This document shows, in pieces, positions 1,427 through 27,617 of a stretch of 64,000 bases of DNA. A program made the translations under genes and the position numbers. Source of the DNA: Alphaproteobacteria bacterium. GTDB lineage: Bacteria; Pseudomonadota; Alphaproteobacteria; Rickettsiales; SXRF01. The DNA lies in NCBI GenBank assembly GCA_033763775.1, contig JANRJW010000005.1:9230-73229 (forward strand), in the 5' to 3' direction. The notes below the pieces were generated by a model, which was not told where the DNA came from, did not search any database, and saw only the letters and a program-made list of their open reading frames with translations. Position 1 is the stretch's first letter, and each line of letters opens with the position of its first letter.

Positions 1427-2848
1427 ATGCAATATTTACTGGTTATCTGCGCTGAGCATGAGTTTGCCGCAATGTCGGAGACGCTGGATCATCAGCTGCC
1501 TTTCCGGCTGATGCACGCGCGCAGCGCCGCGGCAGCGCATCGTTTGCTGAATGATATGGATATATCCGAAATTGCTGCGCTGCTGCTCGATGCGCGGAGT
1601 TCATCCTCCAAGGCACCGGAGGTGATTCGCGGTCTTCGCTCGCTTTATCCGGCCTTGCCGCTCGTGGCTTTCACCGGCTACGCACAGGATGACATGGCGT
1701 GTGAGCTGCTCGCCGCTGGCGCGAGCGATTTTATTGCGATGCCGGCCTCGCTGGCGCGCCTTCGCCATAGTTTGCGCATGGTGCTGCGTATCCGTCATAT
1801 GGCTGATTATATGGGCTGGCTGGAGCGCAAACTTTCCGGCAGCATGGATTTCAGCGACCTGATTGGGCGTGACCCTCAGATGCAGCGTGTGATTGAAACG
1901 GCGCGGCAGGCCGCCGCATCCAAAATCCCTATCTGGATTGAAGGCGCACCCGGCACCGAGATGGAGCTGCTCGCCCGCGCCATTCATGGCGATAGCGGCC
2001 GCGCCAGCAAGCCGATGGTGGTGGTGAACTGCCGGATGATTTCGGCGGATTATGCCGAGGCGGTGCTGTTTGGTGGCGCTAAAGGTGCTGACCACGCCAT
2101 GCTCGGCAAACTGCGCGAAGCCGAGGGCGGCACGCTGCTGCTGGAGGAGGTTGGCGATCTGCCGGCCACGGCGCAGAGCCAACTGCTTGGCTTTCTTGAA
2201 ACCGGCATGGTGTTGCCGCTGGGCGCCGAAACGGCGATGAAGCTGGATGTGCGGATTATCTGCGCGTCTACCCGAAGCGTACCTCATCAGCCTTTCGATA
2301 CTCGCCGAGCGCACCCGCTCACACAGCGCCTGCGCTCAGTGGTGCTTACCCTGCCGCCACTTGCCGAGCGGCGCGGCGATATTGCGCTGATAGCACAATA
2401 CTGGCTGGCGCATCACAGCGCTTCTGAAATGAAAGTGGTTCAATCCATAAGCGCTGATGCTATGGCATGGCTCAGCCGCCAGCCCTGGCCGGGCAACGTC
2501 CACCAGCTGTCGGATGTGATCTGGCGCGCCGTGTGCATGGCTTCTTCGGCGCAGCTGGAACTGGCTGATTTTGCCGCATTATTGCCGCCACTAGCCAGCA
2601 CACCCACACCGCCCAATATTGTGGATGCGGAAGGAAAAATCAGGACACTGCGCTCGATTCAGGAGGAAGCAATACGTTTTGCGCTGCATCATTCCGGTGG
2701 TTGCATGACCCGCGCCGCGAAATATCTAGGGATTGGCCGCTCAACCCTGTATCGCAAGCTTGAAGAGCATCAGATTTCGCGGGCAAACCAGACCACACGT
2801 CCGATGATGATGGTATCATCCGCATCGCGCTCAAACATCGAATATTGA
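1427..2848 (+). CDS. NtrC-family (bacterial enhancer-binding protein-like) regulator with degenerate receiver and AAA+ motifs and an intact Fis-type HTH
   Basis: Architecture is REC-like N-terminus, an AAA+ core (GAPGTEMELLARAIH, GGTLLLEEVGDL) and a C-terminal HTH (AAKYLGIGRSTLYRKLEE). The Walker A GK is replaced by EM, and GAFTGA is replaced by GADHAM. Confidence 0.7.
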   Translation: MQYLLVICAEHEFAAMSETLDHQLPFRLMHARSAAAAHRLLNDMDISEIAALLLDARSSSSKAPEVIRGLRSLYPALPLVAFTGYAQDDMACELLAAGASDFIAMPASLARLRHSLRMVLRIRHMADYMGWLERKLSGSMDFSDLIGRDPQMQRVIETARQAAASKIPIWIEGAPGTEMELLARAIHGDSGRASKPMVVVNCRMISADYAEAVLFGGAKGADHAMLGKLREAEGGTLLLEEVGDLPATAQSQLLGFLETGMVLPLGAETAMKLDVRIICASTRSVPHQPFDTRRAHPLTQRLRSVVLTLPPLAERRGDIALIAQYWLAHHSASEMKVVQSISADAMAWLSRQPWPGNVHQLSDVIWRAVCMASSAQLELADFAALLPPLASTPTPPNIVDAEGKIRTLRSIQEEAIRFALHHSGGCMTRAAKYLGIGRSTLYRKLEEHQISRANQTTRPMMMVSSASRSNIEY

Positions 2849-3456
2849 GAATTATCCGACATCAGCCGCAGGCGGCGCTCGCCGGGCAGAAGCTCCAGCC
2901 GCCGCGCGGTGAGCCCCAGCCCATCAAAGCAGATGAAAATACCCGGCGGTGAGGGCGTTTTCTGGGTGGTGTCCACCATCACCATATCGTTATGGCAAAG
3001 CGTGGGTTCCATATTATCGCCGCGAATGTACATCAGCCGTAAATCTGACACGCTGACACCGAGATGATCCTGAATCCAGCTGCGGCGGAAATAATAGGCC
3101 TCGGCCTCATGCTCGCGGGCGGTGACGCGGTTGCCATCCGCCGTAATATCAACCGTGATGCGTGGAATTGTCACATAATCCTGGCTGGCATGCTCTGGCA
3201 GGGCAGGTGTGGTAGTCAGATCACTGCCAGCAAGGGCAGCAAGGCTGATATTCAGGCAATGCGCCACGCGTGCCAGTTTGATGGTGGAGGGGTTGGTCGA
3301 TTTTCCACTGATCACATCATATAGAAAAGACGGTTTAACATCCGCCTTTTTCGCCAGATCACCCACACTCATGCCGCAGCGCTTCATTTCCTGCTTGAGG
3401 CGTTGGCCAAGCGGGTTGGAGGCGGCGGGGTAAAATTCTTTCTGCATTGCACTCAT
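2770..3456 (-). CDS. XRE-type HTH / S24 (LexA-CI-like) repressor with substituted catalytic dyad
   Basis: HTH segment GMSVGDLAKKADVKPSFLYDVISGKSTNPSTIKLARVAHCL plus a C-terminal S24 fold (RGDNMEPTL ... TARRLELLPG). Start is set at the internal Met (MSAMQKEF); the ORF is open to 3552. Confidence 0.7.
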   Translation of the reverse strand: MSAMQKEFYPAASNPLGQRLKQEMKRCGMSVGDLAKKADVKPSFLYDVISGKSTNPSTIKLARVAHCLNISLAALAGSDLTTTPALPEHASQDYVTIPRITVDITADGNRVTAREHEAEAYYFRRSWIQDHLGVSVSDLRLMYIRGDNMEPTLCHNDMVMVDTTQKTPSPPGIFICFDGLGLTARRLELLPGERRLRLMSDNSQYSMFERDADDTIIIGRVVWFAREI

Positions 3457-3660
3457 TCGCTCACTATAAACCCCTTTATCTTCTTTGCCTAAAGTTTTTT
3501 CTGGGGAGCGCTGGGGCGGTTTTAGCTGTTCCATTTCAAAACAAGACAGCAAAGAACCATCTGAGCTGACAGCAAATTTACTAAATCTTTATCTTTCTGG
3601 CGCAATAGTGGGAACGTGAATTTCTTGGCAAGTGCTGGGCAATGTAATGCTGGATAGAAT

Positions 3661-4320
3661 GTGATGATTGACGAACTACGCATGGCTGAACTGCTTTCGA
3701 CCCGCCTGTGTCACGATCTGACGGGGCCTATTGGCGCAGTCAATAATGGTGCGGAATTTCTCAGCGAAGAAGGTGCGGGCATGCAGGCGCAGGCCGTGGA
3801 GCTGATTACCAGCAGCGCCTTTTCCGCGGTGTCGCGGCTGCAGTTTTATCGCATGGCGTATGGCCACGTCAAAGATCAGGGTGAAGCGAATCTTTCCGAA
3901 AAACAGCGTATCGCCGCAGATTTTTTTACCGGCAGCAAAATCTCGCTCGACTGGCCGGACAGCCACACCGAGGCCGCAGATGTTTCAATCAGTGTGAAAA
4001 TGTCGCGGCTGATTTTCAATCTGCTCATTGTGGCATCTTCCACACTCATTCGCGGCGGCAAGCTGATGGTACGCATCCGTCAGGATGAAGCAGGCCAGCG
4101 CCATGTTTCAGTGCAGGCCAGCGGCGCCGGCCTGAAATGGGAACCCGAAATGGAGCATATGCTGAGCGGCGCGGTTGAAACCTCGCAGCTGTCACCGAAA
4201 AACGTGCAGGTGTATCTCACCCGCCGCTTCGCAGAAGATCTTCGCAGCCGTGTGGAATATCGCATCGGTGCGGATGAAATGGAATTACTCGTCGTTCAAC
4301 CCAGAGCCCAGCAGGGCTGA
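3661..4320 (+). CDS. chpT: ChpT-family histidine phosphotransferase (HPt, PF10090-like)
   Basis: The motif LSTRLCHDLTGPIGAVNNGAEFL matches the ChpT phospho-His region (Caulobacter ARLCHDFISPASAIVSGLDLL). Downstream similarity continues (SSA...LQFxRxAxG, LDW). Size is about 219 aa. Confidence 0.7.
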   Translation: MMIDELRMAELLSTRLCHDLTGPIGAVNNGAEFLSEEGAGMQAQAVELITSSAFSAVSRLQFYRMAYGHVKDQGEANLSEKQRIAADFFTGSKISLDWPDSHTEAADVSISVKMSRLIFNLLIVASSTLIRGGKLMVRIRQDEAGQRHVSVQASGAGLKWEPEMEHMLSGAVETSQLSPKNVQVYLTRRFAEDLRSRVEYRIGADEMELLVVQPRAQQG

Positions 4321-10890: not shown

Positions 10891-12246
10891 GTGGTTTCCC
10901 CCATGCTGGCTGATGACTTGAGTCATATTCAGGAGGTGCGTGTTTCGGGCACGGTGACTGCGGTTCTCGGCATGCTCATTGAATGTAGCGGCATGGAGAG
11001 GCTTCTGTCTGTGGGCGCGCGCTGCCGTGTCGTTGGCACAGCACGGCCAGGTATTAAAACGCCAGAGATGATGGCCGAGGTGGTGGGGTTCGGTGAAAAT
11101 AAAGCGCTGCTCATGCCGTTTGATTCGCTGGAAGGTATCGGCCCTGGCGCGAAGGTCTATCTCGAAGAGTCAGCTTCCGTCGTTTATCCTTCGGATGCAT
11201 GGCTCGGCCGCGTGATTAACGCCATGGGCGAGCCGGTGGACGGGCAGGGGCCGCTGCCGCGGGGAGGCGCGCCCTATCTGCTGCGCAGCCATCCGCCCGA
11301 TGCCCATTCACGCCAGCGTGTCAAGGGTAAGCTCAACCTTGGCGTGCGTGCGATTAACACGTTTCTTTCGTGCTGCCGCGGCCAGCGTATGGGTATTTTT
11401 GCCGGCTCCGGAGTGGGTAAATCGATCCTGATGTCCATGCTCGCGCGCAGCTCACAGGCGGATGTGAACGTCATCGGCCTCATCGGTGAGCGCTCGCGTG
11501 AGCTGCAGGAATTCATTGAAGATGATCTGGGTGAGGAGGGGCTGAAGCGCTCGGTCATCATCGTTGCCACCTCGAGCGAATATGCGCTGCTTCGCCGGCA
11601 GGCTGCCTACATGACCATGTCGGTGGCGGAATATTTCCGTGATCAGGGTAAAGACGTTTTATGTCTGATGGACTCGGTCACGCGTTTCGCGATGGCGCAG
11701 CGCGAAATTGGTCTTTCAGCAGGGGAACCCCCTACCAGTAAGGGGTATACCCCTACCGTGTTTGCTGAGCTGCCCAAACTGCTGGAGCGTGCTGGCCCGG
11801 GTAAGAAGGGGCAGGGCAGCATCACTGGCCTATTTACAGTGCTGGTGGAAGGCGATGATACCAACGAACCTATCTCCGACACAGTGCGCGGTATTCTGGA
11901 TGGCCATATTATTCTCGATCGTGCTATTGCGCAGCGCGGGCGCTATCCTGCGATTAATATTCTGAAAAGCGTCTCGCGTACCATGCCCGATTGCAATAGC
12001 GAGCAGGAAAATGCGCTGATTCGTGTGGCACGCGGTATGCTATCTACTTATGAGGACATGGCGGAGATGATCCGCCTCGGCGCCTATAAAAAAGGCACCA
12101 CCCCCGAGGTTGATCAGGCGATGAATTATTACCCGGCGATTGAGCGTTTCCTAAGCCAGCGCAAGGACGAAAAAACCAGCCTTGACGAGGGCTATGACCA
12201 GCTCGCCGCGGTGTTGGGGATCAAGGATTGGCGCGGCAGTAAATAG
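10891..12246 (+). CDS. fliI: Flagellum-specific ATPase FliI
   Basis: Walker [12 protein letters not shown], Walker [13 protein letters not shown], and the F1/T3SS ATPase pattern ([15 protein letters not shown]). The start may instead be the ATG at 10903. Confidence 0.9.
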
Positions 12247-12247
12247 A

Positions 12248-12328
12248 GTGGACGGTGGACGGCGGACGGTGGACAGTATACAATAAACTGATCATTTTTT
12301 TGTCCACTGTTTACCGTTTGCTGTCCGC
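12248..12328 (+). repeat. Heptad-repeat hairpin in the fliI-fliJ spacer
   Basis: GTGGACG GTGGACG GCGGACG GTGGACA (12248-12275) faces TGTCCAC TGTTTAC CGTTTGC TGTCCGC (12301-12328). Allowing G-U pairs, about 27 of 28 positions pair, and only in the + strand transcript. Confidence 0.55.
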
Positions 12329-12331
12329 CGT

Positions 12332-12760
12332 ATGAAAGGCCTCTTAACGCTTATCAAACTATCCAAGCGCCGGCTCGATGAGCTCCGCCGCAAGCTCGGC
12401 AATCTCGAAGGCCAGAAAGCGCAATTGGAAGAAGTGCTGCGCAGCTTGTCTGCTGAGCTGGCAAAAGAGCTTGAACTAGCGGGAGGGCAACCAGAGATGA
12501 GCGGCTTTTTTGGCGGGTTTGCCAAGCGTATTCAGCAGCGTCAGGACGCCATTCATCAGGAGATTAAAAAGATAGAAATCGAGATCACCAAAACGCGTGA
12601 TGAAATTTCTGATGCATTCAGCGAACAGAAAAAATATGAGATAGCTGCGGATAATGCCAAGAAGCGCGCCGCCGAAGAACAAAACCGCAAAGAAACGCTC
12701 GCGCTTGATGAAGTCGCTGAGCAGCAACACCGCCGAAAAAACAAAGAGGAAAATGCCTGA
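12332..12760 (+). CDS. fliJ: Flagellar export protein FliJ
   Basis: 142-aa coiled-coil protein directly after fliI (RRLDELRRKLGNLEGQKAQLEE...). Size, position and charge pattern are typical of alphaproteobacterial FliJ. Confidence 0.7.
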   Translation: MKGLLTLIKLSKRRLDELRRKLGNLEGQKAQLEEVLRSLSAELAKELELAGGQPEMSGFFGGFAKRIQQRQDAIHQEIKKIEIEITKTRDEISDAFSEQKKYEIAADNAKKRAAEEQNRKETLALDEVAEQQHRRKNKEENA

Positions 12761-14031
12761 TGTTCCTGCTTGCCACCCGCCGCTTTGCGCCACTTTTTAT
12801 CACGCAGTTTCTCGGTGCCTTTAACGACAATATTTTTAAAAATGCCCTCGTGATGTTCATCACCTACAAGCTGGCAACGCATGAATCCGGCAATGCACAA
12901 ATTCTGGTGACGCTGGCAGGCGCACTCTTCATCCTGCCTTATTTTTTGTTTTCGGCGATGGCTGGTCAGTTCGCCGACAAATACGATCGCGCGCGCATCG
13001 CCCGCATCACTAAAGTATGGGAGATGGTGGTGGTGGCTGTGGCGGCCGTGGGGCTTTATAGCGGCCATGCCTATTTCATGTTGTTTGTGCTGTTTTGTTT
13101 TGGCGTGCAATCAACTTTCTTCGGGCCAGTGAAATACACGCTGCTGCCGCAGCACCTTCATGAGAATGAACTCATCGCCGGCAATGCATATATCGAAGCC
13201 GGAACGTTTCTTGCCATTCTGCTCGGCACCATCCTTGGCGGCATCCTGATCATGACGCAGGGCGGTGAGCATCTGGTGGTGGCGGCGATGGTTGTGGTGT
13301 CGGTAGCGGGGTATCTTGCCAGCCGCTACATACCCCCAGCGCCAGCCCCCAGCCCGCAGCTTAAAGTCGGCTATCATATTGTGCGCGAAACCTGGGTGAT
13401 GGTATCGCATGACCGCGAAAACCGCCGCGTGTTCAGAAGCATCATTGGCATTTCGTGGTTCTGGCTCGTGGGCGCGACGTTTCTTTCGCAGTTCCCGACT
13501 TACGCAAAAGATATATTACTCGCTGACGAAACGCTTGTGACATTATTCCTCACAGTCTTTTCTGTGGGCATCGGGATTGGATCATTCGCCTGCAATGCAC
13601 TGCTGAGGGGTAAGGTCAGCGCTGCCTATACGCCATGGGCGGCCGCCGGGATCACGCTATTTACGCTGGATCTTGTGCTGGCAAGCGCCGGTGCCGCACG
13701 CGGCACACCGGACGCGCTGATCTCCGCAGGCCAGTTTCTCGCGCACGCAGCCAACTGGCGTATCCTGTTTGATATGCTGATGGTCGCCATCTGCGGCGGC
13801 ATCTTCGTCGTGCCGCTTTATTCCATCATGCAGCATGATAGCGCGCCCGAAAGCCGCGCGCGCACCATCGCCACGAATAATGTGATGAATGCGCTTTTCA
13901 TGGTGGCGGCGGCGCTCGTGACCGTGCTGCTGCTGGAGATGAATCTATCGGTGCCGCAGGTGTTTGGCGTGCTTGCACTCGCCAATGGGCTGGTGGCGCT
14001 GTATTGCCGCAGGCTTACGCGGCCTGCTTAA
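12760..14031 (+). CDS. MFS transporter, LplT-like (lysophospholipid transporter family)
   Basis: 423 aa, about 12 TM helices. The N-terminal RRFAPLFITQFLGAFNDNIFKNAL is typical of LplT / Aas-associated MFS domains. The start overlaps the fliJ stop by 1 nt. Confidence 0.7.
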   Translation: MFLLATRRFAPLFITQFLGAFNDNIFKNALVMFITYKLATHESGNAQILVTLAGALFILPYFLFSAMAGQFADKYDRARIARITKVWEMVVVAVAAVGLYSGHAYFMLFVLFCFGVQSTFFGPVKYTLLPQHLHENELIAGNAYIEAGTFLAILLGTILGGILIMTQGGEHLVVAAMVVVSVAGYLASRYIPPAPAPSPQLKVGYHIVRETWVMVSHDRENRRVFRSIIGISWFWLVGATFLSQFPTYAKDILLADETLVTLFLTVFSVGIGIGSFACNALLRGKVSAAYTPWAAAGITLFTLDLVLASAGAARGTPDALISAGQFLAHAANWRILFDMLMVAICGGIFVVPLYSIMQHDSAPESRARTIATNNVMNALFMVAAALVTVLLLEMNLSVPQVFGVLALANGLVALYCRRLTRPA

Positions 14032-14326
14032 ACAGCTCTTCCAGCTCGGCCACTTTTTCTGCGCGGTTTTTCTTTTTATCCAGCTGCACCACCTCATCAA
14101 GCGCGGCTTCAAGATGCGCGCGCACAATGCGTGATTCAATGGCGCGCAGGCCGGAATGAATCGCCTTGCATTGAATCAGCACATCGCTGAGCTTGCGGCC
14201 ATCTTGCATCATCTTGCAGATGCCGTCGATCTGGCCGTTGATCCGGTTCAGCCGTTTGATTTCGTCGCCGAAATCAATGGCTGATTTCTGCTGCTGTTTT
14301 TTTTCTTTTTTATCTTTTTTTGCCAT
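14015..14326 (-). CDS. CsoR/RcnR/FrmR-family (DUF156) metal-sensor-like repressor, non-canonical ligand set
   Basis: RLNRINGQIDGICKMM...DVLIQCKAIHSGLRAIESRIVRAHLEAAL aligns with the CsoR helix bundle. There is a Lys-rich N-terminal tail, and SD GGGAGGGG lies upstream. Confidence 0.75.
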   Translation of the reverse strand: MAKKDKKEKKQQQKSAIDFGDEIKRLNRINGQIDGICKMMQDGRKLSDVLIQCKAIHSGLRAIESRIVRAHLEAALDEVVQLDKKKNRAEKVAELEELFKQAA

Positions 14327-14425
14327 ATACCCCTCCCTGAAACGTGGACTACCTCTATAGGGTATAAATGCGCGCCATGCAATTGCTGCGTGGGGGAGTG
14401 GGAAAAACCCTTGTCATTAAGGGGG

Positions 14426-14454
14426 TTGACAACGGTTCGTTTGCCACTTAATTT
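14426..14454 (+). promoter_or_regulatory. Sigma-70-type promoter of tRNA-Ala(GGC)
   Basis: TTGACA-N17-TAATTT ends 17 nt before the mature tRNA 5' end. The same -10 hexamer occurs in front of the second tRNA-Ala (60930-60957). Confidence 0.55.
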
Positions 14455-14471
14455 CACCATCCCTTTGGATT

Positions 14472-14548
<77 letters not shown>

Positions 14549-15026
14549 TTCCACCCTAGTGGAGTGGAAATAGAACCGGCCACTTTCTATAATTGGAAGA
14601 GATGCTTATATTCTCTTTTCAGTATCACTGACTTAGGAGTTAGCCAGGCATCTTGCCCATTAGTTCCGGCTGAAACGGGGACAGCTACCGGGTATGGCTT
14701 GCCAGACACTAAGGTCTGAACAATAAAAACTTCTCTTAAGCCTCTGTTTCCGGGAATTATAAATGGTGGGTTCTGCATCTCCACGCATAGACAATCAAAG
14801 TCAACCCCTCTCGTTTTCGCGGCTGATACGGCGTGTTTTTTCCAAAGTATTGGTAAGTTCTGAGTCATGAATTCAGTCTATATCAAAACCCTCGAGAAAA
14901 CAAATTACCCCCTACTTAAACTTTACAATTAAGAAAAAATAGTCCAACTTTATGCAGTCCTTGATATACCAATATACATGATTGAAGTAATTTCACCGCA
15001 GCCCACCATTAACGATAAAAATTGAT

Positions 15027-15554
15027 ATGAAGAAGAGCTTTTTATTTTTTTCACTACTCATATCGGTGACTGCCTGTATGGTTAAAACGCCTCTTGATGA
15101 TATGACCCCACAACAGCTATCCGCACTTCCCGCTAAAGAGCTGTGTTATTGGGCAAACCTTGGTGATACTGTTGCAATCCCAGAAGCAAGAAGAAGGCAG
15201 GTTAATTGTGCACCTGAATATTTGTATTGTGTAGACAACGGATTCAAACCCGGTTCGAAGAACTTTCTTGAATGCATAAGTAAATATAACCAGTCCGCTG
15301 CTGCGGAACGAGCACAAAAGCAGCAATATTACCAAGAACAGGAACAACTAAGGCGCGATGCAGAAGTGTGCAACTACAGCACACGTGCTTATGCTACCCA
15401 ACCTGGAGGAGATTTTAACGACTGTATACAAAAACTTAAATACTATCGTGCAAATCCTTCCGCACCACCAATCTACACGCCACCCCCTACTCAAAACACT
15501 CAACACACGACATGCGAAATAATTGCTGGTAGATTGGAATGCACTACAAGATAA
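15027..15554 (+). CDS. Hypothetical lipoprotein (low-GC islet)
   Basis: MKKSFLFFSLLISVTAC has a lipobox-like SVTA-C. 175 aa, Cys-rich, and AT-rich codon usage unlike the neighbouring genes. Confidence 0.55.
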   Translation: MKKSFLFFSLLISVTACMVKTPLDDMTPQQLSALPAKELCYWANLGDTVAIPEARRRQVNCAPEYLYCVDNGFKPGSKNFLECISKYNQSAAAERAQKQQYYQEQEQLRRDAEVCNYSTRAYATQPGGDFNDCIQKLKYYRANPSAPPIYTPPPTQNTQHTTCEIIAGRLECTTR

Positions 15555-15686
15555 AAACTGTATAGCTATACAACAAGATCTTCGTGTAGAAACATCATCC
15601 TAATACTATGCAATCCCTCTAAGGATTAGTACGCTCGGCTCGATCTTATTCCACTACAGTCCACCATTTATCAGTATTGTATCGAT

Positions 15687-17458
<1,772 letters not shown>

Positions 17459-20359: not shown

Positions 20360-21622
20360 TTATCTCGCAAACACTGCCACAATCTCCAAATGCGGGCTGT
20401 AGACGAACTGGTCGATCGCTTGCGCTGAAATAAGGCTGAAACCTGCCTGTTTCAGGATTTTGGCGTCGCGGGCGAAGCTCGCCGGGTTGCAGGAAACCAT
20501 GACCACACGGGATAAAGTGGATTTGGCGATTTCTTCTACTTGCGCCTTGGCGCCCGGGCGCGGCGGGTTGATGACCGCTGCATCAAAGCGCGCAAGCTCA
20601 CCCGCGCGCAGCGGCGCCGCAAATAAATCCCGCGTTTCGGCGCTAAGGCTCGTGATGCCCAGCTTTTTGGCCTGCTGCTTTAAGTTATGAGCCATGGTTT
20701 TATCCAGCTCGGCGCCATGCACCAAGGCTTTCTGGCTGAGCGGAAAGCTGTAGGTGCCAATGCCGCAGAAAAGATCCACCACGCTTCTCGCGCCCGCGCA
20801 GCCCGCGAGCACCGCTTCCACCAGCAACTCCTGCCCCTTACGGCTTGCCTGCAGAAAGGCATCTGGCGGCAGGGGAATATCATGGTTGCCAAGGCGCATG
20901 GTGATGGGGGTACGTTCAAAAAGAATCTCGCCATCCTTTGATAGGCGAGAGATGTTAAGAGTTTCTGCGAGCGCCATCATCCATTGACCCTCACCCGCTC
21001 GCAGGCTCGCTTCCCTCTCCCTATAAGGCAGAGGGGTAGGGTGAGGGTGTGACGTCGTCAGCGCCATCTCAATGCCGCTATCGGCCGCGGTCAGGCGAAT
21101 GGTTTTGATGCTGGCGCCATGCTGCCATTGTTGCAGCGTTTTGGCGAGTGGCGCAAGCAGCGCCGCAAGCTGCGGCTCAAGAATCAGGCAGCTATCAATG
21201 GGTACGAGGCGACGCGTCCGCGAAGCATAATAGGCGAAGCGCTCGCCGTCCCATTTCAGCTCCACGCGCCGGCGCGAGGCTGCCGGAAGAAAGATGATAT
21301 CGAGCGGCGTATCGGCAAAACCGGCATGCGCTAGCGCATCTGCCGCCACTTTGCGCTTATGCGCCTGATAGGTGCTTGTGCTTAGATGCTGCAGGCTGCA
21401 ACCGCCGCATGATCCATAGTGCTGGCAGGGCGGGTTGATACGCGAATCACCAGCTTTGATAATCTCTTCAATCTCGCCGCGGGAAAATTCCCTGGTTTCC
21501 TGGATCAGCCGAATGCGCAGCACATCACCCGTGGCTGCTTTTTCAACAAACACGGGCTTGCCATCAAGCTGGCCGATGCCATCGCCGAGGCCGCCCAGTG
21601 AGTTGATGTGGAGTTCAGGCAA
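20360..21622 (-). CDS. TrmA/RumA-family 23S rRNA (uracil-C5)-methyltransferase
   Basis: TRAM-like N-terminus, Fe-S Cys cluster CQHYGSCGGCSLQH, SAM motif VVDLFCGIGTYSFPL and catalytic MVSCNPASFARD. Confidence 0.85.
   Translation of the reverse strand: MPELHINSLGGLGDGIGQLDGKPVFVEKAATGDVLRIRLIQETREFSRGEIEEIIKAGDSRINPPCQHYGSCGGCSLQHLSTSTYQAHKRKVAADALAHAGFADTPLDIIFLPAASRRRVELKWDGERFAYYASRTRRLVPIDSCLILEPQLAALLAPLAKTLQQWQHGASIKTIRLTAADSGIEMALTTSHPHPTPLPYREREASLRAGEGQWMMALAETLNISRLSKDGEILFERTPITMRLGNHDIPLPPDAFLQASRKGQELLVEAVLAGCAGARSVVDLFCGIGTYSFPLSQKALVHGAELDKTMAHNLKQQAKKLGITSLSAETRDLFAAPLRAGELARFDAAVINPPRPGAKAQVEEIAKSTLSRVVMVSCNPASFARDAKILKQAGFSLISAQAIDQFVYSPHLEIVAVFAR
20362..20394. repeat. Downstream copy of the 33-nt direct repeat (true 3' end of the rumA-like gene)
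   Basis: See 19877-19909. Confidence 0.65.
20987..21048. repeat. 62-bp GGGTGAGGG-family palindromic element lying inside the rumA-like CDS
   Basis: ACCCTCACCC (20987-20996) and GGGTGAGGGT (21039-21048) are perfect inverted termini, with an inner CCCTCTCCC/CAGAGGGG hairpin. The architecture matches the intergenic copy at 48176-48239. Confidence 0.75.
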
Positions 21623-21909: not shown

Positions 21910-22497
21910 CTAAACTTCCACACCCTGCCAGCGTTTCACCAGCCCGGCCTCGATATCAAACATATCCAGCATGCGCCCGACCGTATGCCTTATCATCGCC
22001 TCAATGCTGGTGGGTTTGCTGTAAAAAGCGGGCACAGGCGGCGCGATAATCACCCCCATGTCCGAGAGGGTGAGCATGTTGCGCAGGTGAATGGAATGAA
22101 GCGGTGTTTCCCGCACCATCAGCACCAGCCGGCGGCGCTCCTTGAGGATGACATCCGCCGCGCGCGTGATCAGGTTGGTGGAGTTGCCGGTGGCGATTTC
22201 AGCCAGCGAGCGCATGGAGCAGGGCGCGACAATCATACCGTCTGTTTTAAATGATCCGCTGGCGATACTGGCGGATAAATCACTCACGGAGTAATAGTAA
22301 TCCGCCAGCGCATGCACCTGCGGCAGCGTGTAATCCGTCTCATGCGCGATGGTGATTTGCGATGTTTTGCTGATGACCAGATGCGTCTCGACACCCGCCG
22401 CCTTCAGACTCTTCAGCAGCTCAATGCCATAAATCGCGCCGGAGGCACCGCTGATGGCAACAATGATTTTTTTTTGTGTTTGTTGACTCATGGACAT
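21910..22497 (-). CDS. ubiX: Flavin prenyltransferase UbiX
   Basis: [36 protein letters not shown] and [16 protein letters not shown] are UbiX/Pad1 motifs. Confidence 0.88.
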
Positions 22498-22542: not shown

Positions 22543-22575
22543 AAATAAAAAGGCGACGCCGTATGCGCCGCCTTT
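22543..22575 (-). terminator. Rho-independent terminator after the Gly-rich secreted protein gene
   Basis: On the minus strand, AAGGCGGCGC-ATACG-GCGTCGCCTT is followed by TTTTTATTTT. Confidence 0.7.
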
Positions 22576-22598
22576 GTATTGTTCATCAGAGTGACGAA

Positions 22599-23540
22599 TT
22601 AGATATCAGAATCACCACCGGCGCCGCCGCAGCGACCGCGAAGTTCTGCGCTTGCCCAGCCATTCTGCAGGTAAGAGTTCATGCAGGCAATGCTTTCATC
22701 ATTCGCATTTAGACCACCCTGACCTGCACCGCCACCTGCGGCTGGAGAGAGGGCGCCGAGCTGTTCAGGCGTGAGCTGACCACCAGCCGGAGCGAGCGCT
22801 GCTAGCTGATCAGGCGAAGCGCCGCCGGTTGCACCAGCAAAGAAAAGATCCTGAGTGGGAGGAGTGATACCACCAACTGGGCCGATGACCGAGCTTTGCA
22901 GCACTTCAATCAGGTTGATATCAGGTGTGGTGCCTGTGCCGGCCGGAGGAGTGCCACCACCATTATTGCCGCCGCCACCCGGTGGTGTAATTGAAACGCA
23001 GCCGCCGGAAGAGGAAACGCCGGATGAACTGTTCAGTACACCGCAATTAATGGCAGCATCGCCCCTGTTATTCGGGCGAATTTGCGCGGTGTTCTGGTCA
23101 CCTTGCTGGCCACCATCCTGCTCTGGCAGTGTCGCTCCATTGGATCCTCCAGAATTAGATCCGCCAGACGAGCCTGGGTTGGAAACAATCGCCGGAGTAT
23201 CCGGAAAGACAGTAATGCCGTCGCCACCACCACCGGTGCCGCCATTGTCAATTTCCGGCATGGTGACAGTTGGTTGTGGAGTGGGTGCGGGCGGTGGGGA
23301 TGGAGGAAGAGGAATATTGCCACCAATAATGATGTCGTTTGAGCCATTGACAATGTTCAGCAGGTTGCCCGTGGGAGCGCCTTCCAACAGAGGGAAATTG
23401 ACACTATCAATAACCGGGTTAATTTGCTGAGAACCTAAATCTATGCCCTCGAGGCTGTTCGCGGCAGCGCCGAACGGCGCAGCAATCACGGTGATGGATA
23501 AAATTATCGATTTAAAACAATTGCTTGCTGGCTTTTTCAT
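22599..23540 (-). CDS. Secreted Gly/Pro-rich protein, putative atypical cargo of the adjacent TpsB
   Basis: Start is set at [29 protein letters not shown] (signal peptide; SD AGGAAA). The ORF's upstream Met lies inside the predicted promoter. The sequence has long G/P/S/T low-complexity tracts and four Cys in two pairs. Confidence 0.6.
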
Positions 23541-23586
23541 GGGATTTCCTGAAATACGCTGTGAAACTCTCTGGTAATACTTTATT

Positions 23587-23615
23587 AATATATACGACTT
23601 GGTGTCAGGGGTCAA
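23587..23615 (-). promoter_or_regulatory. Sigma-70-type promoter for the Gly-rich protein gene
   Basis: On the minus strand, TTGACC-N17-TATATT lies about 45 nt upstream of the ATG at 23540, in an AT-rich 141-bp spacer. Confidence 0.45.
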
Positions 23616-23681
23616 TCAAATTGTATCTATTTATTTACTAAATATTAACAATTGATTTTGCTCTGATACTATTTGAAGGAT

Positions 23682-25358
23682 TTAGAAGCGAGTTGTTGCT
23701 CCCAGAAACACGCGTGGACTGTCACCGTGATTCCCTTCATTGCTGACGTTCTTCGTCAGCGGCTGTGCAATCTCGATATTAGTTGATACTTGCTGATAGA
23801 TCTGCGCACGAACGCCAAGTCCTACCGAAGATAGGCTGTCATCCGTTGAGTTGTTGCCACGCGTCCAGACGCGGCCTGCATCAAGAAAGCTGTAGACCTG
23901 ATAGCTTGGCATAACAGGTAGTGTGGTGGCACGGTTGTAGCGAAGCTCAACCTTACCGCCAAGCCCGTGGTCGCCAGCGATTTCAGCGGGGTTATAGCCA
24001 CGACCGAAGCCATAGCCACCAAAGCTGATCTGCTCAGCACCCAGCAGTCGATCTGATGCGAACTGGCCTGTAGCGCTGGTCAGCAGGCTTAGCCCGGCGA
24101 CGGGCAAGTAATGCGTACGAGACACGTCGATATTAATTTTTGAAAAATCACCATCAGCACCGCTGCGCGAAGTATCATCGCGCTGCTCAGAGGCGCCCAG
24201 AGCCTTAATGCCTTGTGACAGCTCAACATCAATAATATTAGCGCCGTTCAGCCCGTCGGAAAATTCATAATTCAGACCGCCGCGAAGGGTTCTGATATTG
24301 TCCTTGCTGGTGACAACACCGGCAGTTTTGACATCAGTATTGCGTGCATCAACAGCGCCGCGCACGCTAAGAGTTTTCAGGCGCTCACGGAGCAGCGGGT
24401 GCGTGTAACCCAGCTGTGTGTAGTTAGAATTCGCGGTAATATTCGAAGCGCTGAGGGTTGATTTCGGCTCTGTCTTCGAGAGAGAGCCTGTGGCGGTCAC
24501 TTTGCCACCCTCGGATCCAACCGGCATCTGGTGGTAAATATCGAAGAAACGCAGCTCGGTGGTTGGGCTGGTGGTGACAAAACGCGCTGTTGTACGATCA
24601 CTGCGGTCAAACAGAGAATTAGCCGATGCGGCAAAGCTATGTTGAACCGGGCCGATCAGCTTGCTGCCGCGATTATCTACATTATAGCTGCCATCAAATC
24701 GGCGCTCGCTGAGTGATACCACCAGCTGCGCCGTTCCATCAAGGTTAGCGGAAGGAGTTACTGCGCCGCTGGCACGTACGCCTGGCAAATCATTTAAAAG
24801 CAGCAGAAAGCGCTCAATGTCCGTATTACGCACCGGCCGGGTTGCTGTCAGTTTGTTGGCATAAGCCAGAATAGTAGCGTTCTGTGGTTGGCCGCTGGCA
24901 AAGCGAACCTGGCTGATGGCGCCTTCATTAATCACAATATCCAGCGAGCTGCGATTTGCGGCGGGTTTCAACGCAGCCTGCGCCAGAACAAAGCCTTCAG
25001 CGCGATAAGCGGAAACAATAGCACGCTGAATTTTCTGTGCTGCAGCGCGATCAAGTCGCTTGCCGATGAATGGTTGGTAAGCTTTTTCGAGTGATGAAGT
25101 CGCGATGGCGTGGTTGCCCTTAAGTGTCACATTACGCAGCACAAAACCGAAGCGCTGGGTCACATCAGCGGCAGGTGCCGCTGCTTCTACGGCTGGAAGT
25201 GGCGCGGGTTGTCCGGGGAGTGGGGCTGCTGTTTCACGATCAAATCGACGCTCCACCTGCGCTGGGTCGACTGAAACCGGCTGAGCAAAAGAAGCCGCAG
25301 GCAATAATGATGCGCCGGCGGCGAGAGCAAATAAAAAAACACGGTTTGATACGGACAT
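23682..25358 (-). CDS. ShlB/FhaC/HecB-family outer-membrane transporter (TpsB of two-partner secretion)
   Basis: Signal peptide (ASFAQP), POTRA-like segment (RFGFVLRNVTLKGNHAI...VINEGAISQVRF), conserved L6-like motif FGGYGFGRGYNPAEIAGDHG, and a beta-barrel with C-terminal ...TTRF. Confidence 0.8.
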   Translation of the reverse strand: MSVSNRVFLFALAAGASLLPAASFAQPVSVDPAQVERRFDRETAAPLPGQPAPLPAVEAAAPAADVTQRFGFVLRNVTLKGNHAIATSSLEKAYQPFIGKRLDRAAAQKIQRAIVSAYRAEGFVLAQAALKPAANRSSLDIVINEGAISQVRFASGQPQNATILAYANKLTATRPVRNTDIERFLLLLNDLPGVRASGAVTPSANLDGTAQLVVSLSERRFDGSYNVDNRGSKLIGPVQHSFAASANSLFDRSDRTTARFVTTSPTTELRFFDIYHQMPVGSEGGKVTATGSLSKTEPKSTLSASNITANSNYTQLGYTHPLLRERLKTLSVRGAVDARNTDVKTAGVVTSKDNIRTLRGGLNYEFSDGLNGANIIDVELSQGIKALGASEQRDDTSRSGADGDFSKINIDVSRTHYLPVAGLSLLTSATGQFASDRLLGAEQISFGGYGFGRGYNPAEIAGDHGLGGKVELRYNRATTLPVMPSYQVYSFLDAGRVWTRGNNSTDDSLSSVGLGVRAQIYQQVSTNIEIAQPLTKNVSNEGNHGDSPRVFLGATTRF

Positions 25359-25425: not shown

Positions 25426-26499
25426 TCAGGCGGAGATGATTTTCGCGGCACCTGTTGCAAAATAACTTAGTATTACACGTGCGCCGGCACGTTTGATGGC
25501 GATTAAGCTTTCGATCATCGCGGCATCCTCACTCAGCCAGCCTTTTTCTGCAGCAGCCTTGATCATCGAATATTCCCCACTCACCTGATAGGCGAGCACG
25601 GGTAGCGGGCAAGCTTGAGACACTCTATATATAATGTCAAGATAGGTGCCTGCTGGCTTCACCATCACCATATCTGCGCCTTCCGCGACATCTAGTGCGA
25701 CTTCGCGCAGCGCTTCATCACGATTTCTAAAATCCATCTGGTAGGTTGCCTTTAAAGATGCCCCCGCGAAAGCCTGCTGGCTTTCGCATGGGGCGCCGCT
25801 TCGCGGGCTCATGGCTGTCGCGGCTTCTGCCGCGCGCAAGGCTGCGCTTGAGCCCACCGCATCGCGAAATGGTCCATAAAAATTGGAGGCGTATTTTGCG
25901 GCGTAAGAGAGAATGACGGTGTCCTGAAAGCCTTCAGCCTCAAGCGCCCGGCGGATGGCGCCGATACGACCATCCATCATATCGCTGGGGGCGACGATAT
26001 CGCAGCCCGCACGCGCCTGATTGATCGCCTGCTGGCAGAGAATCTCCACCGTTTCGTCATTGAGAATAATGCCGTTTTTCACCAGCCCGTCCTGCCCATG
26101 CGAGGTGTAGGGATCCAGCGCCACATCGGTGATGATGCCCAGCTGCGGCACGGCATGTTTAAGCGTTTTAATCGCGCGGCAAACGAGATTATCGGGGCTT
26201 AGCGCTTCATCCCCACGCTCGGTTTTAAGCTTGGCGTCGATCACCGGAAATAAAGCAACCGCCGGAATGCCGAGCGCTGCGGCTTCTTTTGCCTCCTTCA
26301 CCAGTAAATCAATCGTCAGGCGAAACACGCCGGGCATCGAAGCAATCGGTGTCGCGGTGTTAGTGCCTTCCTGAATAAAGACCGGAAGAATCAAATCGGA
26401 CGGATGCAGCCGAACTTCAGCGGCCATCTCGCGCAGCCACGGCGCGCGGCGAAGCCTGCGCAGGCGTGTGGATGGAAAGGAGAATGAATAATCTGACAT
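25426..26499 (-). CDS. hemB: Porphobilinogen synthase (delta-aminolevulinate dehydratase) HemB
   Basis: RLRRLR, DVALDPYTSHGQDG, YAAKYASNFYGPFRDA, ATYQMD, GADMVMVKPA and AYQVSGEYSMIK are conserved HemB blocks. Confidence 0.93.
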   Translation of the reverse strand: MSDYSFSFPSTRLRRLRRAPWLREMAAEVRLHPSDLILPVFIQEGTNTATPIASMPGVFRLTIDLLVKEAKEAAALGIPAVALFPVIDAKLKTERGDEALSPDNLVCRAIKTLKHAVPQLGIITDVALDPYTSHGQDGLVKNGIILNDETVEILCQQAINQARAGCDIVAPSDMMDGRIGAIRRALEAEGFQDTVILSYAAKYASNFYGPFRDAVGSSAALRAAEAATAMSPRSGAPCESQQAFAGASLKATYQMDFRNRDEALREVALDVAEGADMVMVKPAGTYLDIIYRVSQACPLPVLAYQVSGEYSMIKAAAEKGWLSEDAAMIESLIAIKRAGARVILSYFATGAAKIISA

Positions 26500-26540: not shown

Positions 26541-27617
26541 CTAGTTCAGGCTGGGTGATTTTTCTTTCGCTTCCAGCTTTTCAAACAGCCTGTCATAGGC
26601 CTTGCCATAAAGCTCGGCCTCGGCGGTGTAGAGGCAAAACGCCACGTGGTTGGAATATTCTTTGGTGAGGTTTTTGAGAAAACTATGCTCAAAGGCTTTC
26701 ACATCGCCAACTTTAGCGCGCGAATAGCGCTGAACGGCAAGGTAAGGCGCAAAGCCAGCCAGCACCGAGCCGACGCGGCGGAACACAATGCGTCCCACAC
26801 CGTCATCGGTGAAAAACCCGAATTTTTTCTTCTCACCGTAATGCGCAGGGTCTTTGACTGGTGAATACATCTTATCCACCGGATCTTTGCCGCCGCTGAT
26901 ATTGGCATAAGCACGGTCGTTGGCCTCAAAGAACGCTGAGTAAGCTACGGTGGCAGCAGTCAGATCATGAAGATAACCGGCTTTGGCGGCGGCGAAGTTG
27001 CCATCGAGGGCGGCAGGAGCCAGCCCGCCGGCCGGAGGGTTTAGCCCCAGGCGCACACACGCTAGTATAGGCGCCGCAAGGAAGGTGCTCGAAAATTCAT
27101 GCGGGATGATGTCTTTGGCATCAGGGATGATGTTGGTGGGGATATGCGCCACCGCATCAATCGCCTCGGCTTCGGTTTTGGCATCTTTGAACACGCGGTC
27201 ATAGGCGCGCTGCCAGAATTTGATGAAGGATCGGTACGTCGTAAAACCGGCGACCACGAAGCTGGTGTTTTCAATCGCAAGGCCAAGATAGGGCTTGGCA
27301 AGAATTTCTTTGGCTTTTGGTGCGAGATAGTGCCCCAGCTTGGCTTCTTCTCTCAGCGCTTTGAACAAATAGCGGTTGCCGGTGAAGGCAACGACCGTGG
27401 GCACCCACGCCACCGTGCCCTTGGCGATGTTGCGCCATAAGATACTGCCGGTGGTGCTGTTGAAATGGTCGCGATGTTCAAAAGCAAAATGGCCGAGCTT
27501 CTTCGCCCAGTCCGGCGCGTTTGAGACATCCGGCTGCGCTTTCGGCATATCACTGGCCGCCGCCTGATTCTCAGGCGGTTTTGGTTTGTTTTCAGCGTTA
27601 TTGACAGCCACAACCAT
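26541..27617 (-). CDS. Hypothetical protein (358 aa), several hydrophobic/amphipathic segments
   Basis: Long ORF with native-like codon usage and no shadow explanation. No motif that I recognise. Confidence 0.5.
   Translation of the reverse strand: MVVAVNNAENKPKPPENQAAASDMPKAQPDVSNAPDWAKKLGHFAFEHRDHFNSTTGSILWRNIAKGTVAWVPTVVAFTGNRYLFKALREEAKLGHYLAPKAKEILAKPYLGLAIENTSFVVAGFTTYRSFIKFWQRAYDRVFKDAKTEAEAIDAVAHIPTNIIPDAKDIIPHEFSSTFLAAPILACVRLGLNPPAGGLAPAALDGNFAAAKAGYLHDLTAATVAYSAFFEANDRAYANISGGKDPVDKMYSPVKDPAHYGEKKKFGFFTDDGVGRIVFRRVGSVLAGFAPYLAVQRYSRAKVGDVKAFEHSFLKNLTKEYSNHVAFCLYTAEAELYGKAYDRLFEKLEAKEKSPSLN

Follow-up and report, generated by a model that had tools for sequence, protein, structure and literature searches.

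A complete TpsB transporter and its small neighbour without a detectable TPS domain: a candidate reduced type Vb secretion module in uncultured freshwater alphaproteobacteria

Organisation of the locus

The window analysed here is a 64-kb stretch of contig JANRJW010000005.1 from an alphaproteobacterium, in which we concentrated on two neighbouring minus-strand genes at positions 22599-25358. The first of them, tpsB, encodes a transporter of the two-partner secretion (TPS, type Vb) pathway, and the second, called here the small gene, encodes its candidate cargo. All functional statements on this pair are computational inferences. The order on the minus strand is hemB, tpsB, a short spacer, the small gene and a ubiX-type flavoprotein gene:

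25426-26499, minus strand: hemB (Pfam ALAD)
23682-25358, minus strand: tpsB, 558-aa FhaC/CdiB-type Omp85 transporter (Pfam, AlphaFold2 (AF2), Foldseek, family profile)
23541-23681, minus strand: AT-rich spacer of 141 bp between tpsB and the small gene (30% GC; sequence)
23615-23587, minus strand: promoter-like TTGACC-N17-TATATT within the spacer (pattern scan)
22599-23540, minus strand: small gene, 313-aa cargo counted from ATG (open reading frame, ORF)
22549-22575, minus strand: intrinsic-terminator-like hairpin after the small gene (11-bp stem with 7 GC pairs, followed by TTATTTT)
21910-22497, minus strand: ubiX-type flavoprotein gene (ORF and domain content)

A secreted-type protein of 313 aa, located 141 bp downstream of the transporter gene on the same strand, had been proposed in a first-pass annotation made from the sequence alone, and its position is correct; with the upstream TTG as a start instead of the ATG the protein would have 338 aa. 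The promoter and terminator given there were both recovered by the pattern scan. The promoter match is suggestive only, because nine promoter-like sites were observed in the 3.4-kb region against 2.9 expected. A Shine-Dalgarno-like GGAA element precedes the ATG of the small gene, and the scan revealed no terminator-like site between the two genes. At eight orthologous loci the spacers are 97-174 bp long with 22-33% GC, and most of them hold a -35/-10-like pair as judged by eye. Signs of phase variation or repeat-driven variability were sought in the form of homopolymer and simple-sequence-repeat tracts, of which there are none; only one 15-nt repeat occurs in two copies.

An intact transporter

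The following parts can be distinguished in tpsB:

25284-25358, minus strand: signal peptide MSVSNRVFLFALAAGASLLPAASFA (read from the sequence)
25236-25283, minus strand: predicted H1 plug helix region QPVSVDPAQVERRFDR (AF2, low confidence)
25146-25235, minus strand: Pro/Ala-rich periplasmic linker, the most divergent part of TpsB (AF2, identity between allele types)
24702-25145, minus strand: POTRA1 and POTRA2, the presumed cargo-recognition module (Pfam, AF2)
23970-24056, minus strand: loop L6 with a GRGY version of the VRGY/F motif (sequence)

The 558-aa protein is a complete, intact and constrained TpsB of the FhaC/CdiB type. The hallmarks noticed in the first-pass annotation are borne out by the Pfam matches to ShlB (PF03865, E 2.5e-31, residues 217-517, covering profile positions 11-310 of 311) and POTRA_2 (PF08479, E 2.9e-08, residues 72-146), as well as by the signal-like N-terminus, the L6 stretch GFGRGYNPAEIAGDHG and the terminal Phe. 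The AF2 model, built with 30 homologs, has a mean predicted local distance difference test (pLDDT) value of 84 and contains two POTRA domains, 16 strands and a long L6; the second beta-alpha-alpha-beta-beta unit (POTRA2) lies at about residues 147-219 (pLDDT about 90), while, at low confidence (pLDDT 30-60), a helix is predicted at residues 32-40 and a disordered Pro/Ala-rich segment at 41-65. The best Foldseek match of this model is CdiB (6WIM, E 6.9e-31, TM-score 0.74/0.77), followed by FhaC (4QL0/4QKY), and the family profile searched against PDB sequences ranks the same two proteins (CdiB 1e-60, FhaC 1e-39).

The VRGY/F motif in L6 and F/GxDxG on strand 13 are hallmarks of TpsB proteins (PMC5422565). 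In the window TpsB they appear as FGRGY (R453, Y455), with G instead of V in the first motif position, and as FLDAG (D493) on strand 13; R453, Y455 and D493 are conserved in at least 90% of the 30-sequence alignment. The protein is like FhaC, CdiB and ShlB in its Pfam domains, in its predicted signal peptide, two POTRA domains and 16-strand barrel, and in these kept residues; the putative H1 helix and linker, modelled at low confidence, would fit the same architecture. It differs from them in two respects: its neighbour is not a TPS-domain protein, and its gene lies in a housekeeping neighbourhood (hemB...ubiX, lepA) rather than in an accessory island. No second TpsB was found in six frames of the 64-kb window, and PADLOC returned no match for either TpsB or the small protein.

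A small protein without a detectable TPS domain

The features of the small gene are as follows:

23460-23540, minus strand: Sec-type signal peptide with a cleavage-type site (read by eye)
23313-23360, minus strand: short predicted beta-hairpin of 16 residues, a candidate minimal recognition segment (AF2 strands 61-65 and 68-72, low confidence)
22998-23045, minus strand: internal Cys loop C166...C181, followed by a Gly/Pro-rich spacer (sequence)
22602-22919, minus strand: conserved C-terminal module, EVLQSSV...PxQDLF... (alignment, profile search)
22629-22685, minus strand: terminal Cys pair C286-x17-C304, 9 residues from the C-terminus (invariant in the family)

The TPS domain is described as common to all TpsA proteins and as the minimal unit for TpsB-dependent secretion (PMC5422565). 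For comparison with the small protein, an alignment of TPS domains was built from the neighbours of five related TpsBs. The small-protein family gave a profile-profile probability of 0.05% (E 0.8) against this profile, and the small protein alone gave an hhalign probability of 0.1% and an hmmsearch E of 1.4, although the same profiles clearly detect the relative P0048, described below. There is no Pfam or NCBIfam match in the small protein and no PF05860 at E<=1, and the NPNL/NPNG(I) motifs are absent from its sequence, in agreement with the first reading. The six-frame translation of the 64-kb window searched with the TPS profile yielded nothing (best E 0.31), and the statement that no large TpsA is present in the window stands.

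The sole hhalign alignment of the family falls on the NxNG(V/I)xFG region of the TPS domain and has no statistical weight. A 17-residue stretch had been thought to recall the TPS core; with the family-level values given above we rejected it as a TPS remnant. The small protein is without a TPS domain that these profiles can detect, and as this domain is the defining test for TpsA proteins, it should not be filed among them. It shares with canonical TpsA proteins (FHA, ShlA, CdiA and the PF05860 neighbours at loci L008-L012) a Sec-type signal, a gene adjoining tpsB on the same strand and, via P0048, descent. It differs from them in lacking the TPS domain, the NPNL/NPNG motifs and the beta-helix, in being 3-10 times smaller, and in that conservation within its family is found at the C-terminus, not at the N-terminus.

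The low-complexity composition rich in G, P, S and T, the two Cys pairs and the repeated units reported earlier were all found again. The mature protein consists of about 63% G/P/S/T/A/N and has a net charge of -19; the charge ranges from -8 to -28 in 12 of 14 cargo-family members, in which Lys and Arg are few. Besides C8 of the signal peptide, its cysteines are C166/C181 and C286/C304, and the two repeated units measure 11 and 12 residues. A basic and hydrophobic N-terminus is comparable in all full-length members, and the Cys loop with the G/P-rich tract was seen by eye in most of them. The AF2 model, based on a four-sequence alignment, contains no beta-helix and is of low confidence (pLDDT 36). 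The predicted beta-hairpin segment is conserved only in the type-I relative P0002, and its role as a minimal recognition segment is speculative.

The conserved C-terminal module and the family

A word-indexed search with the small protein revealed three relatives only. When 1.84 billion representative proteins were screened with a profile of the C-terminal module, 17 proteins were found, always with the module at the extreme C-terminus. The resulting family comprises 18 unannotated proteins of 99-409 aa, all of metagenomic origin; those carrying a name are called "hypothetical protein". Four of them (P0045-P0047 and P0049) are short fragments from contigs of 1-4 kb and may be the C-termini of longer proteins.

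The module occupies the last ~100 residues and includes LSPEQLGALAPAAGG...C-x17-C; its identity is 69-78% among four proteins whose N-terminal parts barely align. The terminal Cys pair lies downstream of the motif LSPxQLGALAPAAGG and is present in 18 of 18 members, with a spacing of 17-20 residues and a distance of 6-10 residues from the end. For this region the AF2 model predicts helices 281-293 and 297-304 (pLDDT about 50-55), which suggests a putative disulfide-locked helical hairpin that might act as an anchor or stopper.

In the HMW1/HxuA subfamily, a small disulfide-bonded C-terminal region kept in the periplasm or in the pore tethers TpsA to TpsB, and in HMW1 this anchor is formed by the last 20 residues with Cys1518-Cys1528 (PMC3983070, PMC3297439, PMC5422565). 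The cargo family resembles these proteins in its conserved Cys pair within the last ~30 residues, which by analogy may be a stopper. The differences are considerable: the Cys loop holds 17-20 residues in the cargo family and 9 in HMW1; the cargo is a disordered TPS-less protein of 313 aa, while HMW1 and HxuA are large, beta-helical and equipped with a TPS domain or pro-piece; no HMW1C-like glycosyltransferase gene adjoins the cargo gene; and the module has no sequence similarity to HxuA, since the search of its profile against PDB sequences returned no HxuA chain at E<=10.

The repeated unit (L)TPEQLGAL(A/S)PAAGG at residues ~244-270 (22740-22810, minus strand) weakly recalls the start of the TAL-effector repeat, LTPEQVVAIASxxGG, and also weakly matches a designed helical repeat protein among PDB sequences. 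We rejected relatedness to either, as the resemblance is at motif level with per-repeat E-values of at least 0.5; it probably reflects a helix-capping motif common to these proteins and not homology.

Adjacency of the two genes

Co-occurrence of small-protein homologs with tpsB, a test suggested by the first-pass annotation, is complete: the eight distinct family members with readable upstream DNA (window, L001-L005, L006/L007, L013, L015, L016, L017, L018) are all encoded directly downstream of an orthologous tpsB. The two genes are strictly adjacent. Wherever the contig continues, the small gene also precedes ubiX-DUF465-methyltransferase-lepA. The order hemB-tpsB-small-ubiX belongs to uncultured freshwater alphaproteobacteria, several of the samples being freshwater metagenomes of the Joint Genome Institute (JGI), and the nearest named LepA sequences come from metagenome-assembled genomes (MAGs) labelled "Rickettsiales bacterium" or "Alphaproteobacteria bacterium". 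A collection of genomes from 185,579 species contained no relative of TpsB or of the C-terminal module. No TPS-domain gene occurs in the flanks of 13-21 kb read around the orthologous loci.

One further locus, L019, belongs to a more distant relative and lies on a 2.05-Mb MAG contig (7241-11803) with a LepA 83% identical to that of the window. The DUF465-methyltransferase-lepA order is kept there, apart from an inserted ParA/CbiA-type gene that precedes lepA. Upstream, the place expected for ubiX is taken by a SocA_Panacea-domain gene; no hemB-tpsB-small-ubiX block was found within the 10 kb read upstream of lepA.

The searchable literature, coverage of which is incomplete and does not prove absence, contained no conserved pair of a TpsB with a TPS-less partner and no orphan TpsB with a small partner; looking in it for genomic surveys of two-partner secretion gave no such precedent either, and no source names any family member.

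Descent from TpsA proteins

TpsB relatives at 34-41% identity, including those of Nitrosococcus wardiae and Elioraea rosea, adjoin PF05860 proteins in five of the five cases examined; these neighbours have 1110, 1896 and 2160 aa, and two more are cut by contig ends. In two of the loci (L008, 8001-17677; L009, 4954-17773), where TpsB is 34-35% identical to that of the window, tpsB and the gene of a giant TPS protein form clusters with CHAT/caspase-like genes (Peptidase_C14, WD40 or TPR). In Nitrosococcus wardiae, CHASE2-guanylate cyclase and DUF928 genes lie ahead of the cluster. Such clusters are a multi-gene TPS arrangement that recurs.

The link between such proteins and the small-protein family is provided by P0048 (409 aa, locus L015), which is encoded in the context hemB-tpsB-x-ubiX-DUF465-lepA and carries the C-terminal module (E 1.3e-4). 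The final third of a TPS domain is retained in its residues 133-218 (hmmsearch 29.5 bits; hhalign 93%, E 2.9e-7), and BLASTP links it to the TPS-bearing protein of locus L011 (E 7e-6), with a further match (E 0.002) in the signal region. Because all other family members are at noise level with the same TPS profiles, P0048 represents both a positive control and an evolutionary intermediate.

The L011 protein (2254-3897) is the TPS-bearing partner of a 41%-identical TpsB, with a Pfam TPS score of 21.5 bits, below the 33.5-bit cut-off. After the beta-helix it continues, as read by eye, into a Cys loop (CTLVNGTGDCG) and a PAPAPAP/DAPPP tract before the contig ends, so that its C-terminus is missing. 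The arrangement in the small-protein family is alike, and the L011 protein may be a full-length version of this family.

Since P0048 keeps a TPS fragment and the TpsB relatives pair with TPS proteins, the comparisons identify the cargo family as an eroded TpsA that descended from TPS-domain proteins; this applies to the family, and to the window protein through its membership. Its lineages preserve the intermediate stages: full TPS, one third of TPS, none. In a neighbour-joining tree, which is rough, small and unsupported by resampling, the L015 TpsB groups with those of L011 and L012, which have TPS-bearing partners, and the TpsB fragments of the TPS-less loci L016 and L018 are also closest to this group. 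TPS-bearing, partly eroded and TPS-less partners thus interleave in one TpsB clade, within which erosion seems to have occurred, possibly more than once.

The term "orphan", used for the TpsB in the first-pass annotation, is accordingly no longer suitable, as its small neighbour belongs to a family derived from a TpsA partner at the same locus. A second suggestion, that an ordinary TpsB was recruited to export an unrelated novel small substrate, would agree with the absence of significant similarity between the window protein and any TpsA. However, P0048 at the orthologous locus possesses a TPS fragment and a TpsA-like signal region, related TpsBs pair with PF05860 proteins, and in the TPS-bearing protein of L011 the beta-helix is likewise followed by a Cys loop with a G/P-rich tract, as judged by eye. 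Stepwise erosion thus explains the locus more simply, and recruitment is very improbable. Of the first-pass interpretation, the part that holds is a genuine TpsB with a miniature secreted-type partner in which no TPS domain is recognisable; recruitment of the TpsB for another substrate is not supported.

Selection on the two genes

The dN/dS ratios, calculated according to Nei-Gojobori, are rough estimates, as dS is saturated in most comparisons. For tpsB they are 0.06-0.2 (0.06 between L001 and L006), for the small gene 0.11-0.2. Over its final 57 codons, the small gene of the window has 22 synonymous and 8 non-synonymous codon differences from that of L006, and a 23-residue core of the C-terminus is unchanged. 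These ratios indicate that both genes are under purifying selection and are functional.

It might be supposed that the small ORF is a pseudogene in decay, or that it is open only by chance in low-complexity DNA rich in GC; this would suit its composition, the length range of 99-409 aa in the family and the very fast divergence of the N-terminal part. The low dN/dS, the C-terminal core invariant across 22 synonymous changes, a signal peptide and reading frame that are intact and uninterrupted in every lineage, and the presence of promoter-, Shine-Dalgarno- and terminator-like signals make this hardly credible.

A divergent allele cassette

Comparison of the window with the near-conspecific locus L006 reveals one further feature:

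22550-25246, minus strand: divergent allele cassette, comprising tpsB from codon ~40 onwards and all of the small gene (nucleotide identity)

The amino acid identities between the window and L006 are 99.2% for LepA (dS 0.16), 97.9% for UbiX (dS 0.14) and 94.1% for HemB (dS 0.23); they fall to 62.7% for TpsB (dS ~1.5) and 51.6% for the small protein (dS saturated). By its dS the cassette is an old, divergent allele. At the nucleotide level the flanks are 94-100% identical and the cassette about 30-75%. Identity drops sharply from 100% to about 45% at ~25246, just past the signal peptide and the H1 helix, and recovers to the values of the flanks close to the terminator that follows the small gene. 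The tpsB signal peptide is 100% identical to that of the L006 ortholog, in contrast to the rest of the gene, and the H1 segment is 100% conserved in the window, L006 and L001.

The L006 cassette is like that of the more distant L001 (82% amino acid identity for both proteins), the flanks of which are only about 80% identical in nucleotides to the window or L006. The nearest known cargo to that of the window is the type-I relative P0002 on L013. The simplest history suggested by these identities is that the window lineage swapped the mature part of tpsB and the whole small gene for a divergent pair by recombination in the conserved flanks. On this evidence the two genes are inherited and replaced as one unit.

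Divergence within TpsB is distributed unevenly. Between the allele types, identity is 20% in the linker, 44-48% in POTRA1 and 52-55% in POTRA2, against 63% in the barrel strands, 72-75% in the surface loops (as predicted from the model) and 90% in L6. For the linker, dN is 1.0 and dS 1.5 between the window and L006; omega between L001 and L006 is about 0.12 for the POTRA domains, which are thus still under purifying selection, and about 0.04 for the barrel. Because identity is lowest in the linker and POTRA domains, divergence is concentrated in the periplasmic substrate-binding part and not on the exposed face. Co-evolution with a fast-changing cargo N-terminus would produce this pattern.

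Allele replacement between close relatives, together with CdiB as the best structural and sequence match of the TpsB, could also recall contact-dependent inhibition (CDI), i.e., a miniature polymorphic-toxin TPS system in which the variable part is an effector and the allele swap reflects toxin/immunity diversification. In comparison with CdiB-CdiA-CdiI the polarity is nevertheless reversed, the C-terminus of the cargo being conserved and its N-terminal body variable. No immunity-like ORF follows, the next gene being the conserved ubiX-type flavoprotein gene; neither a VENN-type junction nor a toxin domain is present, and low complexity characterises the variable part. On the conservation polarity and the lack of an immunity gene we rejected a CDI-like system, for which we see very little chance.

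Other features of the window

Between trpS and hemB, outside the divergent cassette, a 358-aa protein without a Pfam match is encoded at 26541-27617 (minus strand). It occupies the same position in L001 and L002 and is 83.5% identical to the L001 copy; L015 has a 279-aa ORF without a Pfam match at this position.

GC content reaches its minimum in the window (47%, compared with about 55%) at 14001-16000, between tRNA-Ala GGC (14472-14547) and an ABC-transporter gene. This stretch contains an ORF at 15027-15554 (plus strand) for a Cys-rich protein of 175 aa with the lipoprotein-type start MKKSFLFFSLLISVTAC and no Pfam match. In L001-L003 the corresponding place downstream of this ABC gene is taken by a DUF2924 and serine-recombinase element, and the stretch looks like a variable region or integration hotspot.

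The tRNA-U5-methyltransferase-like gene (20360-21622, minus strand) is only 66% identical to its L001 counterpart (11706-12950), while its neighbours lepA, ubiX and the ABC gene reach 90-92% in the same comparison; identity to the L006 gene is 96%. Either this gene is fast-evolving or it was replaced in one lineage.

Discussion

The presented analysis suggests that tpsB and the small gene may form a reduced, probably surface-tethered, TPS-domain-less type Vb module, to which we give an even chance. The small protein has lost the TPS beta-helix domain of roughly 250 aa and most of the passenger, and it keeps the Sec signal, an acidic, largely disordered Gly/Pro/Ser-rich body, one Cys loop and the C-terminal Cys-x17-Cys module. 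By analogy, the small protein probably works like a tethered partner of the HMW1/HxuA type. Beyond the first-pass annotation, the C-terminal Cys-pair module, the wider family and the joint allele replacement of the two genes were revealed.

The POTRA domains are considered to bind TpsA proteins in an extended or unfolded state, probably by beta-augmentation, the linker occupying the groove of POTRA2, and the type Vb secretion signal is described as "imperfectly defined" (PMC5422565). We suppose that the cargo would be exported by Sec and stay extended in the periplasm, where the co-diverging POTRA domains would capture an N-proximal linear segment by beta-augmentation, displacing the linker. 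The acidic disordered body would then thread through the TpsB barrel until translocation stalls at the C-terminal disulfide-locked hairpin, which, as in HMW1 and HxuA, would be kept in the periplasm or pore. As a result, the variable acidic disordered part would be displayed on the surface, tethered to TpsB, perhaps as a surface coat, an adhesin or a recognition tag.

Kang'ethe and Bernstein (2013) reportedly passed an intrinsically disordered passenger through the autotransporter pathway, where charge is said to matter. The cargo family is similar to such type V passengers in being strongly acidic with few Lys and Arg; the system of that study is said to be an engineered type Va construct and differs in this respect from a natural type Vb pair.

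Several points weigh against such a module. The TPS domain is held to be minimal for TpsB-dependent secretion (PMC5422565), and the small protein is without one; a disordered cargo gives no beta-helix folding energy for export; and the N-terminal parts contain no recognition motif common to the whole family. A canonical TpsA encoded outside the 64-kb window may use this TpsB. The cargo model is of low confidence (pLDDT 36), and the C-terminal module shares with HxuA or any other PDB chain only a short LTPEQ-type motif, so that its anchor role is an analogy. In addition, replacement of the allele was observed once, the surface loops were assigned on a predicted structure, most comparisons have saturated dS, and faster evolution of the POTRA domains could also be explained by partial relaxation after TPS loss.

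In the main rival explanation, the small protein is a relic partner: descended from a TpsA and no longer a substrate of TpsB, it would be exported by Sec and serve in the periplasm or envelope in a role of its own, carried by the C-terminal module, and TpsB would be kept for a TpsA elsewhere or for another function. It agrees with the undetectable TPS domain, considered necessary for secretion (PMC5422565), with the promoter-like elements of the small gene itself, with the fact that only 64 kb of the genome are in view, and with a disulfide-bearing C-terminal module, which would fold in the periplasm. Against it stand the adjacency to tpsB in eight of eight readable cases, across lineages whose N-terminal sequences are almost unrecognisable, and the joint replacement of both genes as one allele in which POTRA and linker diverge most. 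Moreover, TpsB is under strong constraint, and no TPS-domain gene was found in the window or in the 13-21-kb flanks of the orthologous loci. We regard a relic partner as less likely than the tethered module; among the alternatives it is the foremost one.

Returning to the secreted and tethered module, we put forward tentatively, with somewhat less than even confidence, a more general proposal: there may be natural TpsB substrates without a TPS domain, for which POTRA recognition and export would require no more than a short linear stretch within an acidic, disordered chain, and a C-terminal disulfide knot would serve as a permanent surface anchor. A 558-aa transporter with a self-anchoring cargo of ~290 residues would also be an attractive minimal scaffold for surface display, and the two allele types would lend themselves to swap experiments on the specificity with which POTRA domains recognise the cargo.

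If the small protein is not exported, the locus records a secretion partner decaying to a new envelope protein while its transporter persists. If it is exported, it would set a natural lower bound on the recognition needs of TpsB, and beta-helix folding would not be required as a driving force. In that case the co-diverging alleles of POTRA/linker and cargo N-terminus would represent matched and mismatched pairs revealing the minimal type Vb secretion code.

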